Shown: in pieces, positions 2,925 through 29,910 of the stretch
Layout of the letters: every line of letters begins with the position of its first letter
Position numbering within the stretch: the stretch's first letter is position 1
Source: a virus
Lineage: Duplodnaviria; Heunggongvirae; Uroviricota; Caudoviricetes
DNA length: 29,910 nt
Direction: 5' to 3' (one strand)
IMG/VR virus record: IMGVR_UViG_3300045988_123188
Notes under the pieces: generated by a model
Databases searched by the model: none
Seen by the model: only the letters and a program-made list of their open reading frames with translations
What the model was told of the DNA's origin: nothing
Program-made: the position numbers and the translations under genes

Positions 2925-3618
2925 CCGGGACTGCAGTGTCTCCCGGACGTCATCCGGAAGATGGCTGTAGGGATTGCCATCCACCTTATGGCTGCCGCTG
3001 TAAATCAGCGTGATTTCCACGCCCTGTTTCTCCAGCGCAGCACCGTAATTACTGTGAGCCATCATGACGCCGATGGAGCCTGTCCGGGCGGTCTGCGTGA
3101 CCAGACGCCGGGAGGCGGCACTGGCAAGCAGCTGACCTGCACTGCAGTTCATGTCGTTGGCCAGCGCCCATACCGGTTTTATGTCACGCACACGGGCGAT
3201 GATGTCAGCGCAGTCAAATGCCCCCGCCACCATCCCGCCGGGCGTGTCCATATCGAGCAGAATGCCGTCCACCATCGGATCGCTGGCAGCCTGTTGCAGA
3301 CGGGCGATAATGCCGTTGTAACCGGTCATCCCCGAATACGGCTGCAGCGCCCGCGTCCGGCTGACCAGCGTGCCGGACACCGGCAGCACGGCGATGCCGT
3401 TCATGACCTGATAACTGCGGGCCTGTCGTGGTCCGTTATCATCACCGGATAACGCCAGCGTCGCGGGTGCCTCCGGGGCAGTCAGGCTGTCACCGGACAC
3501 CGCATCTGTCAGGCGGCTGATCCCAAGCTGGCCTGCAAGCGCACAAAAGAAAACCCGCGCATAGGCGGGTTCAAGCATCAGCGGCTCATTAAAGGCCATG
3601 CTGGCAATATGCGGGAGA

Positions 3619-3638
<20 letters not shown>
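2319..3638 (-). CDS. C: head maturation protease / scaffold protein C
   Basis: 439-aa product (V)TAELRNLPHIASMAFNEPLMLEPAYARVFF...NDLLNTPV matches lambda gpC; lambda-equivalent start codon is GTG here (plus-strand cac at 3636-3638) with AGGAGGAGAA SD upstream; overlaps B by 20 nt as in lambda. Confidence 0.82.
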
Positions 3639-7319
<3,681 letters not shown>

Positions 7320-21800: not shown

Positions 21801-24800
21801 ATGACATTAAACGATTTCTATGCGGATCGCTTTGGCAGCGATCCGTTCTCGCTAATTGAAGCAGCACGGGATGAACTAACCGAGCTGGCACAGATGGCTG
21901 GTATCAACTGGCCTGCCTGTTCCGACAACATCCAACTCAACCCTCGCGGGGGGGTTGAGCGTTACTCTTCATACAATAAAACATCTCCAGAAGCTCTCGA
22001 AAAGAGCCTGAAAGGACGCGTAGAAATTTACTCCCGGCTGGAACACAGCAAAGGGATTGATTACCCGTTCATTAACTTCGTCCATAAAGGCAGCGATGCT
22101 GGCTCATGGAGCGGTTTCTCCTTCCTGTTTTCTGAATATCGCCGTGAGCAACAACGGAATAATGCGACCGTGGTCGCACAACCGGAAGAAGAACGGGAAA
22201 GAATAGAACGTCAGGCCGAAGCACGTCGTCGCCGTGAAGAACAAAAACGAATTAATGACCTGAAAAACAACCAAATGGACCATGAACGTTTGCTGGGATG
22301 GCTGGCATTCCACAGCGCGTGGGAACATGCTCCGGCTGAAGACGGCTCATGGCCATATGCGATTAAAAAAGGTATTCGTGACGTTTTTAGTTCATGTGAT
22401 GTGCGTCGCGTGACCAGTCACGACAGTGCGAAATGGAGTCGGGGACCAACCACATATATGGCTATCCCTCTGGCTCACCTGGACGGTCGTTACGATGGTC
22501 GTATTGTGGGTTGGCAGCGAATCGACAAACAAGGTGGGAAATACCAGACCAGCGCAGTAACCAGCGGCGATTTCGTCGGTGCCTGCTTTGTTATCGGTGA
22601 GCTGAAAGGGGCGCAAAACATCGCTGTTACAGAAGGTTTTGCTACTGGTGCATCCATCTGGCTTGCCACGAAAAAAGATAAACGCTTTGACGCTGTGGTT
22701 GTCGCTGTATCCGCTAACAACATGGTTCATGTTGTGGAACAACTGGTAAACATGTACCCGGCGGTAAAAATCACCTGCGCACTGGATAATGACCGGAAAT
22801 CTGCCACAGAAGGAAAAGGGAATACCGGCCTGCGGACTGGCTATGAAATCTTATCGAAATTCAACGATGTCCGCTGCGTCTATCCAACTTTTGAAGACGA
22901 TCCGCAAATGGAGTGCAGTGACTTCAACGACCTGCACAAACTACGTGGACTTCGTGAAACAGCACGTCAACTATTTGCAACAGCAAACCGCCTGAAAACC
23001 GGTACTGATTTGCTATCTCTGACGCTCAACCGCCTGAAGACAATTAAGCGGGATAACCGTCGTACTTTTGCCAAAGAGCTGCTGAGAGCGGTGGATATTG
23101 GCATGCTAACCTGCCCGGTTCCTAACAGTCCGTCAGATTTATTTAACATGTTCTGCATCGTTCTGCGTGAAATGGGACTGGAAAATATCTATCGCGCTAC
23201 GGTAAAAGACCACATTGCCCGTCGCCTGAATAAAAAGTGCCGTATTGCCCAGGCTCCGCGCTCTTTCAGCGAACGCATAACTGATCCCAATAAACGCCCT
23301 CAACATATCACCTATAAGCGTTTTGAAACTTCGGTAATGACCGATGATCTCCTGAAGTACGTGCAATCACTACAGGGGATAGTCATCGTCCGTGCTGGTA
23401 TGGGTTCCGGCAAATCTACTGGATTGTTACGACCGTTAATGCATAGCTCAGAACGTGGTATCTCTGTTGCTCACCGTGTCTCCCTTATTGGTGGCCTGTG
23501 GGAAATGATGACAGAAGGAAAAGGTGTAAAAGCCGATATCCTGCACTATCAGGACCCTGGCTATCAGGAAATGGCTCCATACGCCAGTAAACTGACCATC
23601 TGCATAAACTCGATTGTTAAAAACTGCTGGCAACCGTTGATGCGCCAGCACGACTATTTTGGCTTTGACGAGGCCACACAAGGGCTACGTGCCGTTCTTT
23701 CCGGTCGGGCTATGGAAAACCCAGTGGCTGTATTCAATACGCTAATTGACGCGCTGGCCAGAACGGAACAACACCCAATAATGGTGGATGCTGATGCGAA
23801 CGATCTGCTGGTTGACCTGGCTGAACTGGCTATGAAACGCCGTGAAGAACTAGGTTTACCGGCATGGCTGCAGATCCACGTAATTGAATTACCTGTTGAT
23901 GTTCGCAACCGCGAAACAGGTGAGCCAATCCGGGTTTTTTATACAGAAAAAGATCGCATCATGACCGAGGTGGTGAAAGCTGTATCGGATGGCGAAAAAA
24001 TCATGTTGGCCACCGACAGCTCCACCTTTGCAGAAGATGTGACAGCCACCCTGAGAATGCATTTTCCTGGTAAGAAATTTCTGTGTGTAAACCAGAAAAA
24101 CAAACCAGAGCCAGAAGTTGAAGCATTTACCAATCAACCGAAAAAGATGGTCAAAAAATACGACGGCCTGATTTATAGCCCGTCTATTTCATCCGGCGTG
24201 TCGATTGAGCAAAAACATTTTGACCGTCATTTCGGCATGTTCTGTGGTGAAGTTGTACCCAGCGACGCAGTGCAAATGCTACGCCGCGACCGTACAGCAA
24301 AAGAATTTATTATCGGCTTTGATAAAGCTCGTGCAAAACGTGAAACTGACCCGCAAAAAATAGAACGAGCATTCGCCCAGGCATTGCTTGCTACCGCAGG
24401 TATGAACGGTGAACTTACGGATGTCGTTTTCGATGGCGACCGTATATCAATGGGGGTGGCCAATACCGACTTTACCAGGATGAAAATTAAAGCAGCCGCA
24501 ATTGAAGCGACTGCGCGTAACGACTACGCCAGCAACATGATCTGCATCATGCACAGCGACGGTTATAAGGTATCACCGCTGGCCACCGATTATGCTGCGA
24601 ATGATATCGGTAAAGATCTGCGTAAAGAAGCGCGGGATATTGTGTGGGAACAGACACTGGATCTGCACCTCAATACAGAAACTCCACAAGAATCAGAGCG
24701 TGAAAAACTGCTAAAAAAACGCGCGCTGACGCTTGAAGAACAGGCAAAACTTGTCCGCTGGGATATTGAAAACGAACTGAAACTACCGGTTGAAGAAGGC

Positions 24801-25796
24801 ACGCTGAAATTCTATTTCGATGGTGCTCGAGACAAAGTTCGCCGCTATGAAACAATGCTTTTAGATGAGGTAACAGCTCGTCGTTACGACCGGGAAGAAG
24901 CAGCCATCAATTTTACCTACGCATACCGTCAGGCGGGACAGTGGCAATATTTTGTAGTGACCGCGATGACTCGCGAGCAGGCTGATGATGTCTTTAAAAC
25001 TAAATTCCCTGGAATAATCGATCACAAGGTAAAAGCTACTCCTACTGTTGAAGTCGGGGCGCGCGGTTTCTATGCGCTTAAATCAGCAACTCTCCGGCAG
25101 TACTTTATCGACTGCGGTATCAACCCTGAGACTATGACCGGCGAGGCGACTCAGGAGCGTCTCAAATTCGCTCGAGATAACCTCATGACAGCCGAACGCC
25201 GTGACCTGTTGAATAACGTTCTGCACATTGGTGGTTTTATGACGCCAAAAGGGAAGCCTAAAGTGCCGGAAGCGTTGTTTAAAAACATTTGCGACTCTCT
25301 TGGCCTTAAAACAGGTAAACGTCGCGGCAGAGACGGCGATAAGCGTCCAACCTTGCGTTTTGTTGAGCCTGAATCAGCGGCATTTATGCTGGATATTCTT
25401 GTTCAGCGTCAGAAAGATGGCCTAACCCTAAAAACGCGTAAAGCCGAGAAGACAGCCATCGAAATGGATCGCGATTTGGATCTCAATATATATATGGATG
25501 ATAAAACGCGATCCACAAACGAGCAGGTTCAAAACGCCCCTCATTCAGTAATTTCTGAGGCTTTGGCCGTGTTGCCAGTGGCTGTACCTGAGTCCTGGGC
25601 GATGAGTGCGCTTTCCAGTGAGGAGTTGGCCACTATGTCATCATGGTCATCAGCCAGCATAGCTATGACGTTTGCATCTCTGTACCTCACAGAGTTCATG
25701 GATCACCTTTCCAGCAATGAGCTGCGGCGGTTACGTGAATACATTACGGGGAATAGCTCATGCAGCTACGAAGAGCAGGGCGCTTTCTTTGGGTAA
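21801..25796 (+). CDS. repA: replication protein RepA, multidomain primase-helicase (N15 RepA-like)
   Basis: 1331 aa; Toprim/primase-like segment (NIAVTEGFATGASIW...TCALDNDRKSATEGKGNTG), Walker A GMGSGKST, Walker B-like FGFDEA; size and architecture match my recollection of N15 RepA (~1320 aa). Confidence 0.8.
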   Translation: MTLNDFYADRFGSDPFSLIEAARDELTELAQMAGINWPACSDNIQLNPRGGVERYSSYNKTSPEALEKSLKGRVEIYSRLEHSKGIDYPFINFVHKGSDAGSWSGFSFLFSEYRREQQRNNATVVAQPEEERERIERQAEARRRREEQKRINDLKNNQMDHERLLGWLAFHSAWEHAPAEDGSWPYAIKKGIRDVFSSCDVRRVTSHDSAKWSRGPTTYMAIPLAHLDGRYDGRIVGWQRIDKQGGKYQTSAVTSGDFVGACFVIGELKGAQNIAVTEGFATGASIWLATKKDKRFDAVVVAVSANNMVHVVEQLVNMYPAVKITCALDNDRKSATEGKGNTGLRTGYEILSKFNDVRCVYPTFEDDPQMECSDFNDLHKLRGLRETARQLFATANRLKTGTDLLSLTLNRLKTIKRDNRRTFAKELLRAVDIGMLTCPVPNSPSDLFNMFCIVLREMGLENIYRATVKDHIARRLNKKCRIAQAPRSFSERITDPNKRPQHITYKRFETSVMTDDLLKYVQSLQGIVIVRAGMGSGKSTGLLRPLMHSSERGISVAHRVSLIGGLWEMMTEGKGVKADILHYQDPGYQEMAPYASKLTICINSIVKNCWQPLMRQHDYFGFDEATQGLRAVLSGRAMENPVAVFNTLIDALARTEQHPIMVDADANDLLVDLAELAMKRREELGLPAWLQIHVIELPVDVRNRETGEPIRVFYTEKDRIMTEVVKAVSDGEKIMLATDSSTFAEDVTATLRMHFPGKKFLCVNQKNKPEPEVEAFTNQPKKMVKKYDGLIYSPSISSGVSIEQKHFDRHFGMFCGEVVPSDAVQMLRRDRTAKEFIIGFDKARAKRETDPQKIERAFAQALLATAGMNGELTDVVFDGDRISMGVANTDFTRMKIKAAAIEATARNDYASNMICIMHSDGYKVSPLATDYAANDIGKDLRKEARDIVWEQTLDLHLNTETPQESEREKLLKKRALTLEEQAKLVRWDIENELKLPVEEGTLKFYFDGARDKVRRYETMLLDEVTARRYDREEAAINFTYAYRQAGQWQYFVVTAMTREQADDVFKTKFPGIIDHKVKATPTVEVGARGFYALKSATLRQYFIDCGINPETMTGEATQERLKFARDNLMTAERRDLLNNVLHIGGFMTPKGKPKVPEALFKNICDSLGLKTGKRRGRDGDKRPTLRFVEPESAAFMLDILVQRQKDGLTLKTRKAEKTAIEMDRDLDLNIYMDDKTRSTNEQVQNAPHSVISEALAVLPVAVPESWAMSALSSEELATMSSWSSASIAMTFASLYLTEFMDHLSSNELRRLREYITGNSSCSYEEQGAFFG
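22163..22178. promoter_or_regulatory. sopC-like palindrome TGCGACCGTGGTCGCA embedded in repA coding sequence (encodes NATVVAQ)
   Basis: Fifth copy; the only one inside a gene. Confidence 0.55.
25466..25514. other. candidate replication origin inside the 3' part of repA: inverted repeats GGATCGCG/CGCGATCC flanking (AT)5, with three GATC sites
   Basis: Seen in sequence; N15 ori is reported to lie within the 3' region of repA (recall). Confidence 0.35.
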
Positions 25797-27438: not shown

Positions 27439-27668
27439 ATCAGGTAAAAATGAACACTGTTGGCCTGCTGGAATCGTTGGATGAACGTCTGGCTCAGGTC
27501 TATGCGCTCGTATCATCAGCCCATCGGACAATCTCCAGTTGTGAGGCGTCGATTTATCTCTCAGAAGCAGGGAAACTCCTTCAAATTGCGTGTGAGCTAA
27601 CACACGAAGCACAGGGTTATTCAGCATCGCTCTCGTCGCAATTGCTGCACGATAAGGAGGCTGAATGA
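27435..27668 (+). CDS. hypothetical protein (77 aa), AntA-position gene of the anti-repressor operon
   Basis: Track ORF; translationally coupled on both sides. Confidence 0.4.
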   Translation: MNQVKMNTVGLLESLDERLAQVYALVSSAHRTISSCEASIYLSEAGKLLQIACELTHEAQGYSASLSSQLLHDKEAE

Positions 27669-27829
27669 GCGCGTTAGCAGTCTTTTCCTTTCAGGAAGAG
27701 CATCAGGTTCGTGTAGTGATGATTAACGGCGAACCGTGGTTTGTTGCATCTGATGTGTGTATGGCGGCGGGTATTGATTCTACGGCCATCAGAAAGTTGG
27801 ATGAGGACGAAAAGGGGCAGGCGAGGTAG
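27665..27829 (+). pseudogene. truncated Bro-N/AntA-type antirepressor N-terminal domain (54 codons)
   Basis: MSALAVFSFQEEHQVRVVMINGEPWFVASDVCMAAGIDSTAIRKLDEDEKGQAR resembles Bro-N domains but stops after ~54 aa, whereas Bro-N proteins are usually over 100 aa. Confidence 0.4.
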
Positions 27830-27839
27830 ACCACACAAC

Positions 27840-27865
27840 AAGGCACCGATAATTCGGTGCCTTTA
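27840..27865. terminator. hairpin AAGGCACCG-ATAATT-CGGTGCCTT between converging ant operon and telN
   Basis: Perfect 9-bp stem seen in sequence; T-rich flank is modest. Confidence 0.4.
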
Positions 27866-27874
27866 CCGTATGCT

Positions 27875-29788
27875 TTATCCGAAATATGTCAGCCATGCTA
27901 ACTGCATTGCTGATATAGGGCTGTTTGCACTGCCGGACCAAGCATAATTCTGGCCATTATAATGAAACTCAACAACGTATGAGCCATCACCAATATTTCT
28001 CACAGGCTTAAATACCGGCTTAGATACAGGTGAAGAAGGCGCGGGCGGTTGCTGTTCTTCTACGCTCTCTTCCTCTTCCTCTTCCTCTTCCTCTTCCTCT
28101 TCCTCTATCTCAATTTCGTCGTCATCCAGATCGTCATCCTCTGATAATTCATCCGTCTGTTCAGGTATTGCTTCCAGCTCTTCTTCGTCAGGCATAACGA
28201 TTTCTGGAGAATCTATTTTCAGCTGCCATTGTCCATTTTCGCCAACAAATTGCCCCAGAGCATCAGCAGCAAATTCCAGGTATCGACTAATCATTGTAGG
28301 GCTAAATTTGAATGCTCTTAGAGTGCTGTTCGTGATTTTTATAGAGGGGTCATGCTCTACCAGCTGCTTAACTGTGTTATGCAGACGAACCCCGGCATCT
28401 CCTCTGGCGAATCCTGGCATTTCGTCATCAAGCTGCTGCAATGCTTCCAGCCTGGTATTTTCGTTTCCAGTATTTGGCCTCCATGTCTTTGAGAAGTTGG
28501 CCAGCTTGAATTGCTTATAGTGTAATTGAGTGTTTTCATCGTCATGGCCTAAAATTTCCATAAAGAAAACATCCTCATCTACGTTTTTCCAACGAGGATC
28601 TACGCGGAAAAACATTTCATACGCAATACGGGCATAAATAGCACGACTATCTTTATAAACACGGCGGTCATCTTTGAAAAATGATTTAACCCACGGGTTA
28701 AAAGCCTTTGCTAATATGGCATTAATCCGTCCGTTTTCAGAGCGTGTGTCGTTATCTCCATAACCTTTAACGACATCATCAAAATCAGATGCTGCTGGGC
28801 ATGAGCGAAGTACATTTATTAAATAAACAAATGTTTTTGCTTCGCATAATGTATATATTTTTCTGGTTATATCATCAGAAGTTCTTTTTTTTGCTTGGCC
28901 TAAAAAATCAACGGTATACTTACCAGAAACAGTAAATGTACCTTGATACATAATCTCAATCATTCGTCTTCCTGACAATGCAGCAAGTGCAAATGCCAAA
29001 GGAGCCATACCTGAACGAGTGTTTAGATTATTTAATGTAGCAGGGCTATTTATAATATCGTAAATAGCTTGCATATATTTAGGGTAATCAATGACCACCA
29101 CGTTACGTTTCTTATTGTGCAGAACGTCCGCCCATCGTTGCTGGATAGATGCGCGTTCGGCAGGGCTTAGTTGAAGATGATAGAGAATCTCATGGTTAAC
29201 TTTTAGCTGATTCAACTCCTCAAGTAAGGCAGATCCTTGCTGTAGTAATTTATATAAATAATCGCGCTTATCTTTCCAGTTATCGCTAGTTAAATCAGAT
29301 ATGGCGAATTGCCACTCTTTATATTTATTTGATAATTTTAATAACTTATTATGACTTTTGTTATCACCAATTCTGATATTAGATAAATCTTCTGATAAAG
29401 GGAGAATTAATTTTAATTTTGCCTGTAAAGCTGACATTCTCTGGCGAATATCGGCAGCAGGTAGAGAAAGCCATGACAATAGCTCCTCATTATATAAAGG
29501 ATACTTTTCAGATAGGCGATGTATATTTTTTTCAAAGCTATGATGAAGTTTATCATCAAACCGTTTTCTGGCCCTGCTCATATAGGCATTGAAGGTGTTG
29601 GCTGTAATTCTTTTTTCTAATCCTTTCCCCCTAAACTTTCGCTTATCATTAAATAATGCATTTTTAAATTTTAATGCAACAGCCTTTATTTTTTTTGTTT
29701 TTTCCCCTTGAGGACGGTCAGAGTTATCTATTGACTCAACATCGCTAACAAGTGAGTTTATTAATTCACCGATTTTTACTTTGCTCAT
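27875..29788 (-). CDS. telN: protelomerase TelN (telomere resolvase)
   Basis: 637 aa; MSKVKIGELINSLV...KRITANTFNAYMSRARKRFDDKLHHSF..., YLYKLLQQGSALLEELNQLKVNHEILYHLQLSPAERASIQQRWADVL, NTRSGMAPLAFALAALSGRRMIEIM, RINAILAKAFNPWVKSF...RVYKDSRAIYARIAYEMFF (catalytic Tyr region) match N15 TelN as recalled; SD GGAGAGGAAA. Confidence 0.9.
   Translation of the reverse strand: MSKVKIGELINSLVSDVESIDNSDRPQGEKTKKIKAVALKFKNALFNDKRKFRGKGLEKRITANTFNAYMSRARKRFDDKLHHSFEKNIHRLSEKYPLYNEELLSWLSLPAADIRQRMSALQAKLKLILPLSEDLSNIRIGDNKSHNKLLKLSNKYKEWQFAISDLTSDNWKDKRDYLYKLLQQGSALLEELNQLKVNHEILYHLQLSPAERASIQQRWADVLHNKKRNVVVIDYPKYMQAIYDIINSPATLNNLNTRSGMAPLAFALAALSGRRMIEIMYQGTFTVSGKYTVDFLGQAKKRTSDDITRKIYTLCEAKTFVYLINVLRSCPAASDFDDVVKGYGDNDTRSENGRINAILAKAFNPWVKSFFKDDRRVYKDSRAIYARIAYEMFFRVDPRWKNVDEDVFFMEILGHDDENTQLHYKQFKLANFSKTWRPNTGNENTRLEALQQLDDEMPGFARGDAGVRLHNTVKQLVEHDPSIKITNSTLRAFKFSPTMISRYLEFAADALGQFVGENGQWQLKIDSPEIVMPDEEELEAIPEQTDELSEDDDLDDDEIEIEEEEEEEEEEEEESVEEQQPPAPSSPVSKPVFKPVRNIGDGSYVVEFHYNGQNYAWSGSANSPISAMQLAWLTYFG
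28067..28102. repeat. perfect hexanucleotide microsatellite (CTCTTC)6 inside telN, encoding a poly-Glu run
   Basis: Six tandem perfect units on the plus strand, equal to (GAAGAG)6 on the coding strand, giving EIEEEEEEEEEEEEESVEE. Confidence 0.85.
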
Positions 29789-29799
29789 CTTTCCTCTCC

Positions 29800-29835
29800 T
29801 GATTATCAGCTCTGATTATCGTAACACAATTTGAG
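29800..29835. promoter_or_regulatory. direct repeats TGATTATC x2 and TATCAGC...ACACAATT, resembling the arm of the N15 telRL/tos site; putative TelN-binding/telN promoter region
   Basis: CCTGATTATCAGCTCTGATTATCGTAACACAATTTGAG; the N15 telRL arm is recalled as TATCAGCACACAATTG. Confidence 0.3.
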
Positions 29836-29910
29836 AATAAGATAACTAATAACGCGTTAACTTAGCTTCAAACTAACAGAACATAATGACGGATAATAAA
29901 CAAAAACACA

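Follow-up and report, generated by a model that had tools for sequence, protein, structure and literature searches.

The window, i.e., the whole stretch of 29,910 nucleotides that was analyzed, ends with 122 bases (29789–29910) that directly precede the ATG of telN at 29788 on the minus strand, and these bases had thus been correctly described as the telN upstream region. A Pfam analysis revealed that the telN product contains all four protelomerase domains (TelK_N, muzzle, ResT/TelK catalytic, and stirrup; E-values from 1e-25 to 1e-50), and the protein is about 82% identical to the TelN of N15 over the first 540 amino acids. The repA gene (21801–25796, plus strand) is convergent with telN, an arrangement that is a hallmark of linear plasmid-like phages (PMC10432266). 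Because the set of TelN domains is complete and repA and telN converge, the replicon was identified as a linear plasmid-like phage. The protelomerase gene adjoins the telomere arm, and its transcription is directed away from the telomere. Over its last 25 kb, the window was collinear with positions 81–22989 of PhiR46_1 (PV340565) at 97% identity, and the PhiR46_1 record annotates a "telL site" at 1–22 and a "telR site" at the other end. The telN region matched 31 plasmid and 2 phage records, all except two of them at 95–99.5% identity, and for many of them the end is no more than some tens of bases away from the place where the window stops. The 122 bases very probably represent the outer two-thirds of the telN-side (telL) arm of tos in an N15-like (Ravinvirus-type) linear plasmid prophage of E. 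coli. Such a tos arm is already known, since its architecture is as described for N15 and close relatives have been deposited and annotated. The features at the locus are as follows.

27875–29788, minus strand: telN, protelomerase (telomere resolvase), 637 aa (open reading frame list and Pfam)
29793–29800, minus strand: ribosome-binding site AGGAGAGG, 4 nt before the telN ATG (sequence reading)
29799–29807 and 29812–29820, plus strand: two copies of the exact 9-mer CTGATTATC with a period of 13 (GATAATCAG on the telN strand; repeat search)
29800–29807 and 29813–29820, plus strand: two copies of the direct repeat TGATTATC (read from the sequence)
29804–29810: TATCAGC (sequence reading)
29818–29826, minus strand: candidate telN core promoter, extended -10 TGT-TACGAT with the hexamer from 29823 to 29818 (scoring and conservation)
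29818–29830, minus strand: outermost tos box ATTGTGTTACGAT, +150 to +162 from the inferred tip, TRTGTT core starting at +152
29824–29831: ACACAATT (sequence reading)
29834–29837, minus strand: invariant TTCT in the promoter spacer, -26 to -23
29877–29887, minus strand: middle tos box ATTATGTTCTG, core starting at +95
29903–29910, minus strand: innermost box in the window, (AT)TGTGTTTTT, core starting at +70, cut by the window end

Additional observations were made within and behind telN. The C-terminal part of the protein contains a poly-Glu run, which is encoded by an in-frame (CTCTTC) tandem array of 6.7 copies at 28067–28106. The array looks length-variable, because the TelN proteins of relatives with 98–99.5% identity differ in size (633, 635, 637, and 639 aa). 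A hairpin with a perfect 9-bp stem, AAGGCACCG-ATAATT-CGGTGCCTT, is located at 27830–27853 between the stops of a 54-aa open reading frame and of telN (27875), and at the equivalent site a "putative bidirectional terminator" is annotated in the record of phiKO2. The terminator scanner reported only a smaller overlapping stem (27855–27868). The 54-aa open reading frame (27665–27829, plus strand, 165 nt) is a BRO-family gene beside telN that is equally short in many plasmid relatives, whereas phage YDC107_1 has 777 nt. The short gene seems to be a truncated form of a BRO-N/antirepressor-like gene.

A telO-like palindrome was not found anywhere in the window when up to three mismatches were allowed. 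For a comparison, relatives were retrieved from viral and genome collections with TelN residues 1–540, which yielded 47 loci. In each of the 30 loci that reach the palindrome (TelN 60–100% identical) the dyad centre was located 189–194 bp upstream of the telN ATG, and in plasmid pAMSC3 it was found 69 bp past the point that matches the window end. Because of these two distances, the hairpin tip is predicted at coordinate 29979, 69 bp past 29910. The telO core (centre TACGCGCGTA) and the inner arm boxes are therefore not within the window, which stops at +70 from the predicted centre. PhiR46_1 and YDC107_1, which are 98% identical to the window in this region, run on past the last base of the window with ATATCGGAAC(A/G)TTAAAATTTGTTCCTTGACTTTGTTCTGAAAATCAGCACATAATTTCCCATTATACGC and then GCGTATAATGG, and their 22-bp core CCATTATACGCGCGTATAATGG is the telO sequence of N15. 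Based on pAMSC3, which is identical at 120 of the 122 bases, the missing plus strand past 29910 is predicted to read ATATCGGAACATTAAAATTTGTTCCTTGACTTTGTTCTAAAAATCAGCACATAATTCCCCATTATACGC, the expected continuation being ...ATATCGGAACATTAAAATTTGTTCC...ATCAGCACATAATT(C/T)CCCATTATACGC, and the inner 28-bp telL arm and the tip would lie 42–69 bp past 29910. The preliminary description had placed the telomere probably just beyond the window, with reference to N15, in which telL lies within a few hundred bp of telN, and this placement is supported by the homology to replicons with 98–99.5% identity. In addition, 21 of the 43 related viral contigs end 13–281 bp upstream of telN, as would be produced by a physical DNA end. 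The identity as an N15-like tos arm and, by homology, the position of the telomere can be regarded as very highly probable. If the DNA stems from a linear prophage, nothing would follow past the tip, and the 56-bp palindrome would exist only in the mature or circular form, at a replicated junction, or in a read-through assembly.

The possibility that the end of the window is itself the physical end of the DNA, or that the telomere is located elsewhere, far beyond the window or inside it, was also considered. In favor of this possibility, many assemblies of such plasmids break off close to the end, at points that vary. However, a hairpin end cannot sit at +70, inside a conserved box, a telO-like palindrome is present nowhere in the window, and every relative that extends far enough has its dyad centre 189–194 bp from the ATG. 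This alternative is thus extremely improbable.

Several records cross the centre and continue into a perfect inverted copy of telN, with arms from 127 to more than 190 bp. These are the loci L054 (NZ_CP031108, pAMSC3), L055 (CP088810), L001 (CP025712, YDC107_1), L016, L029, L030, L042, and L049, and some of them are labelled as circular plasmids of 27–81 kb. They are hairpin read-through assemblies or telLL (dimer) junctions, and not genuine circles. Two further elements were observed past the point that corresponds to the window end. At 3605–3654 of locus L002 (which would correspond to 29916–29965 of the window) relatives contain a GGAACA-N8-TGTTCC hairpin with a terminator-like score in both directions as well as a promoter-like site, TTGACT-18-CATAAT, that points to the hairpin tip. 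Both are specific for the clade of the window.

The preliminary description had stressed direct repeats and sequence blocks upstream of telN, and every one of these strings was located in 29789–29910. The exact 9-mer CTGATTATC has two copies in the 29.9-kb window, both upstream of telN, while 0.16 were expected, and two or more copies did not occur in any of 100 shuffles. The distal copy overlaps the end of the -10 element, and the proximal copy is located in the predicted 5′-UTR beside the ribosome-binding site. The second TGATTATC copy and TATCAGC are shared only with pAMSC3, which has both exact copies. The other relatives with 98% identity contain CGGATTATC (in one case CGGACAATC) in place of the second copy and TATCCGC in place of TATCAGC, and in an alignment both the TGATTATC repeat and TATCAGC were absent from N15. 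The TGATTATC repeat was rejected as a conserved operator, because its conservation fails among relatives with 98% identity and in N15. As judged from these comparisons, the TGATTATC duplication is probably a local 13-bp event (GATAATCAGAGCT/GATAATCAGGAGA) of little consequence and not a tos repeat.

One could imagine that the CTGATTATC direct repeat, half of which is the near-palindrome CTGATTATCAG, is the operator for a dedicated regulator of telN, and its position between the -10 element and the ribosome-binding site as well as its uniqueness in the window would fit to this idea. Nevertheless, the second copy differs in relatives with 98% identity, the repeat is missing in N15, phiKO2, and other clades, and it resembles a 13-bp tandem duplication, so that a dedicated operator is very improbable. 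The preliminary interpretation is supported, with a correction as to which repeats matter. The region indeed contains tos-type repeats that are homologous to N15, but the stressed pair of TGATTATC copies is poorly conserved, and according to the alignments the conserved tos element is the ACACAAT-containing box rather than the TGATTATC repeat. The proposed likeness of the TATCAGC...block to the N15 telRL arm is better represented by TATCGTAACACAAT (29817–29830), which matches TATCAGCACACAAT, the L3 sequence of N15, at 11 of 14 positions; TATCAGC lacks conservation.

The 122 bases contain three copies of TRTGTT on the telN strand, while 0.06 were expected (P about 4e-5 for a pattern that was picked post hoc), and none on the opposite strand. 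For the longer pattern TTRTGTTMY, the complete window has only two matches, both of them in 29789–29910. In relatives with TelN proteins of about 80–100% identity the start positions of the boxes on the telN arm, as counted from the dyad centre, are +70/71, +95, and +152, and all of these boxes face outward. The +95 box was present in all clades compared, with a (nearly) invariant TGTT, and the +70 or +71 box was found in most of the compared loci, with every clade represented. The arm at the sop side has three to six outward-facing boxes and no inward-facing box. The box positions were fixed although the sequences between the boxes are largely unrelated. In the relatives, the +95 box is the distal arm of an internal inverted repeat, CAGAACA...TGTTCTG, the partner arm of which lies past the window end. 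In every clade the +95 box has a pairing partner at about +30 to +38, which is an inverted box copy (AGAACA or GTAACACA).

An alignment of 27 distinct sequences from the dyad centre to the telN ATG revealed strong conservation at three kinds of sites, namely the telomere core with the inner arm, short TGTT blocks, and the motif TTCT-N7-TTGTGTTAYGAT. The latter corresponds to 29837 to 29818 of the window (minus strand) and is the most prominent of the conserved blocks. The +152 box holds most of the best-conserved columns outside of the telomere core. TTCT at 29834–29837 was invariant in all 27 distinct sequences, and N15 reads TTGTTCT at this place. This TTCT can be read as what is left of a box of the TGTTCT type that was placed 11 bp upstream of the +152 box.

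For a single sequence, the statistics for a likeness between the boxes and the inner arm are weak. The arm pattern with up to three mismatches had 18 matches in the window versus 17.5 expected, which is the chance level, and shuffle tests of the inner arm box against the respective flank yielded P values from 0.01 to 0.7 for individual sequences. The argument that the box array is real is therefore carried by location, orientation, and conservation, and not by the similarity within one sequence. The array has the form of degenerate, oriented copies of the arm box that flank telRL, as in the L1/L2 and R1/R2 type. The tos site comprises about 310 bp, L1/L2 and R1/R2 are degenerate copies of L3/R3 that possibly recruit several TelN molecules, and looping or a protective nucleoprotein assembly has been proposed (PMC12624138). 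In contrast to the main reading given below, end protection does not require CTD1 (the stirrup domain), to which the reading of the boxes is ascribed (PMC12624138). A reading of TCTCAAATTGTGT as an IHF site was rejected, because the match to the consensus was poor as judged by eye.

The outermost box coincides with a candidate telN promoter. Its extended -10 element is placed 35 nt before the telN ATG, inside the +152 box, and the transcription start is predicted at about 29811, which would result in a 5′-UTR of about 23 nt. The site, TGn followed by a TAnnnT hexamer, is suitably located upstream of the ribosome-binding site and is conserved among the relatives; a purine-rich block was found at the position of the ribosome-binding site in all relatives aligned. 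With a simple sigma-70 scoring, a site at -34 to -36 from the ATG ranked among the top three for 22 of the 27 distinct sequences; for one further sequence the site was at -41. The hexamer variants TACGAT, TATGAT, TATCAT, and TATTAT retain T1, A2, A5, and T6 together with the upstream TG, while positions 3 and 4 vary. The candidate -35 element (TTATCT or GTTATC) is poor, and therefore the promoter call depends on the extended -10 element and its conservation. A generic promoter and terminator scan of 29500–29910, which required a -35 element, yielded no promoter on the minus strand, and a search against Rfam, for which a permissive threshold was used, resulted in nothing but a snoRNA match inside telN that is attributable to chance. 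An alternative -10 element, GATAAT at -19 with a -35 element TTGTGT, was rejected, because the start would fall inside the ribosome-binding site; this GATAAT is also missing in N15 and phiKO2. A second, weaker -10-like sequence, CATTAT (plus strand 29883–29888), overlaps the +95 box and is a candidate at about -100 from the ATG. In the clades of N15 and of the window the boxes are of the TGTTCT type, with the exception of the +152 box of the telN arm, which alone has retained the -10-like form TGTTACGAT, and this suggests a double constraint on this copy. In contrast, phiKO2-type clades repeat the 12-mer TTGTGTTATGAT on both arms, and thus the conservation at +152 could, in these clades, reflect box identity alone and not a promoter. 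Weighing scoring and conservation, the TGTTACGAT-type extended -10 element at 29818–29826 is somewhat more probably the telN core promoter than not.

Alternatively, the region could be a promoter with a leader and nothing else. The TRTGTT boxes would then be promoter-like or AT-rich spacer, with a sigma-70 extended -10 element and perhaps a second promoter at about -100, and neither TelN binding nor autoregulation would occur. It fits to this explanation that exactly the promoter-critical bases are kept in the extended -10 element, that PY54 keeps GTTACGAT though its repeats otherwise differ, and that TelN binding outside of the 56-bp telRL was not found in the literature search. Yet the spacer, in which sigma-70 does not contact specific bases, contains the invariant TTCT and TTGTG (29825–29829), and outward-facing boxes also fill the sop-side arm, which needs no telN promoter. 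Moreover, the N15 box that is equivalent to +152 pairs with a mirror copy across telRL, as one arm of a 29-nt inverted repeat with 86% complementarity. A promoter and leader without TelN binding is therefore an unlikely explanation.

Conversely, the boxes could be purely architectural, without any part in telN transcription, and the protein on them could be TelN or another one of phage or host origin. The promoter would then be located elsewhere in the arm, e.g., at the +95 box, or else in the 69 bp that follow the window. The boxes are symmetrical on both arms, looping or a protective nucleoprotein assembly has been proposed (PMC12624138), and several clades have alternative promoter-like sites at about -100 and about -115. 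This explanation does not account for the observation that the -10-like form is restricted to the +152 box in the clades of N15 and of the window, nor for the distance between the +152 box and the ATG, which is fixed at 34–36 nt in nearly all clades compared. A purely architectural role was thus judged to be improbable.

The main reading may extend to box occupancy by TelN and a control of telN. It is known from the family literature that TelN cuts and rejoins telRL, telLL, and telRR into hairpins, stays bound, and protects the ends from SbcCD, and that the 56-bp telRL suffices for processing. It is likewise established for the family that, after replication, a TelN dimer cleaves and rejoins the duplicated telLL palindrome, by which the hairpin is regenerated, and that the dimer remains on the hairpin and shields the end. 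The boxes are degenerate copies of the inner-arm box that TelN recognizes in telRL, and further TelN molecules on the outer boxes would then form a telomere nucleoprotein complex. The +152 box, which matches the inner arm box at 11 of 14 positions, contains the -10 element, and because of this overlap its occupancy would repress telN, so that TelN would exert negative autoregulation. The full-text literature search yielded no statement on TelN autoregulation or on TelN binding at the outer boxes; a paper of Dorokhov et al. (2004) reportedly deals with the regulation of telN expression. The preliminary description had ascribed to TelN an autoregulation from promoters within tos, and the sequence evidence is compatible with this notion without proving it. 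The chance that TelN autoregulation operates via the boxes is put at slightly less than even. In its full form, the proposal that the outermost tos box doubles as the telN -10 element, that arm-bound TelN throttles its own gene, and that telN expression reads out the occupancy of the array is put forward only tentatively. If this were true, newly replicated or injected DNA with free boxes would de-repress telN, and the near-invariant distance of 189–194 bp from tip to ATG together with the fixed boxes at +70, +95, and +152 would be the consequence of a phased nucleoprotein structure, of which the promoter is a part.

The main value of the result is annotation. Owing to this stretch, the window can be annotated as the telL-proximal 30 kb of a linear plasmid prophage, the assembly of which ends about 69 bp before the covalently closed hairpin. 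In addition, it is a warning with regard to several near-identical public records of "circular plasmids", which are artefacts caused by read-through of the same hairpin. The biology repeats the knowledge about N15, and the remaining interest lies in the strictly conserved geometry and the promoter-in-box arrangement. The fixed box geometry and the embedded promoter make a control of TelN over its own synthesis easy and cheap to test.

A comparison with the sites of N15, phiKO2, and PY54, an alignment of which had been suggested as a check, revealed collinearity with the N15 arm, shared box positions with phiKO2, and a different site in PY54. A base-for-base alignment was obtained between the region and the telN-side arm of N15 (AF064539; telRL 24775–24830, telN from 24995), and gene order and orientation are the same. 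The distance from tip to ATG is 192 bp in N15 (cut at 24802/3, ATG 24995) and 191 bp in the window, the telO core is identical to that of the relatives from the window clade, and the N15 boxes are located at +71, +95, and +152, with an outer box GATTGTGTTACGATA that is identical to that of the window. In contrast, the inner arm reads ATTGTGTG in N15 and ATTATGTG in the window clade, the stretches between the boxes have diverged, and N15 lacks the 13-bp duplication that is present between the -10 element and the ribosome-binding site of the window. The N15 tos primers tosLOC and tosROC-2 (0.4-kb fragment) span 24609–24975, and tosROC-2 ends in GGATATCGTAACAC (PMC2847241). The amplicon includes the homologue of 29818–29830 and reaches within 20 bp of the telN ATG, and thus the arm of the window is collinear with an experimentally delimited tos.

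The telN regions of PhiR46_1 (PV340565), YDC107_1 (CP025712), and plasmid pAMSC3 (NZ_CP031108) are 98–99.5% identical to that of the window. These records reach or cross the telomere, while the window stops 69 bp short of it, and their TelN proteins differ from that of the window in the length of the poly-Glu tract. pAMSC3 shares 120 of the 122 upstream bases and has the exact repeat variant of the window. In the Klebsiella phage phiKO2 (TelK) the distance from the telRL centre to the ATG is 190 bp, boxes are located at +95 and +152 and a third one at +71 in a part of the clade, and an extended -10-like sequence, TGTTATGAT, is present at -34. The phiKO2 boxes are near-perfect ATTGTGTTATGAT copies on both arms, with an inverted copy that abuts the inner arm, whereas the boxes of the window clade (TGTTCT type) are far more degenerate. 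The Tel protein of the Yersinia phage PY54 has an identity of only 43%. As in the window, its protelomerase gene adjoins the palindrome, here called pal, and is transcribed away from it, and GTTACGAT is found about 40 nt before the ATG. However, pal is a 42-bp perfect palindrome with another arm sequence and a flanking inverted repeat, and it is located 140 bp from the annotated ATG.
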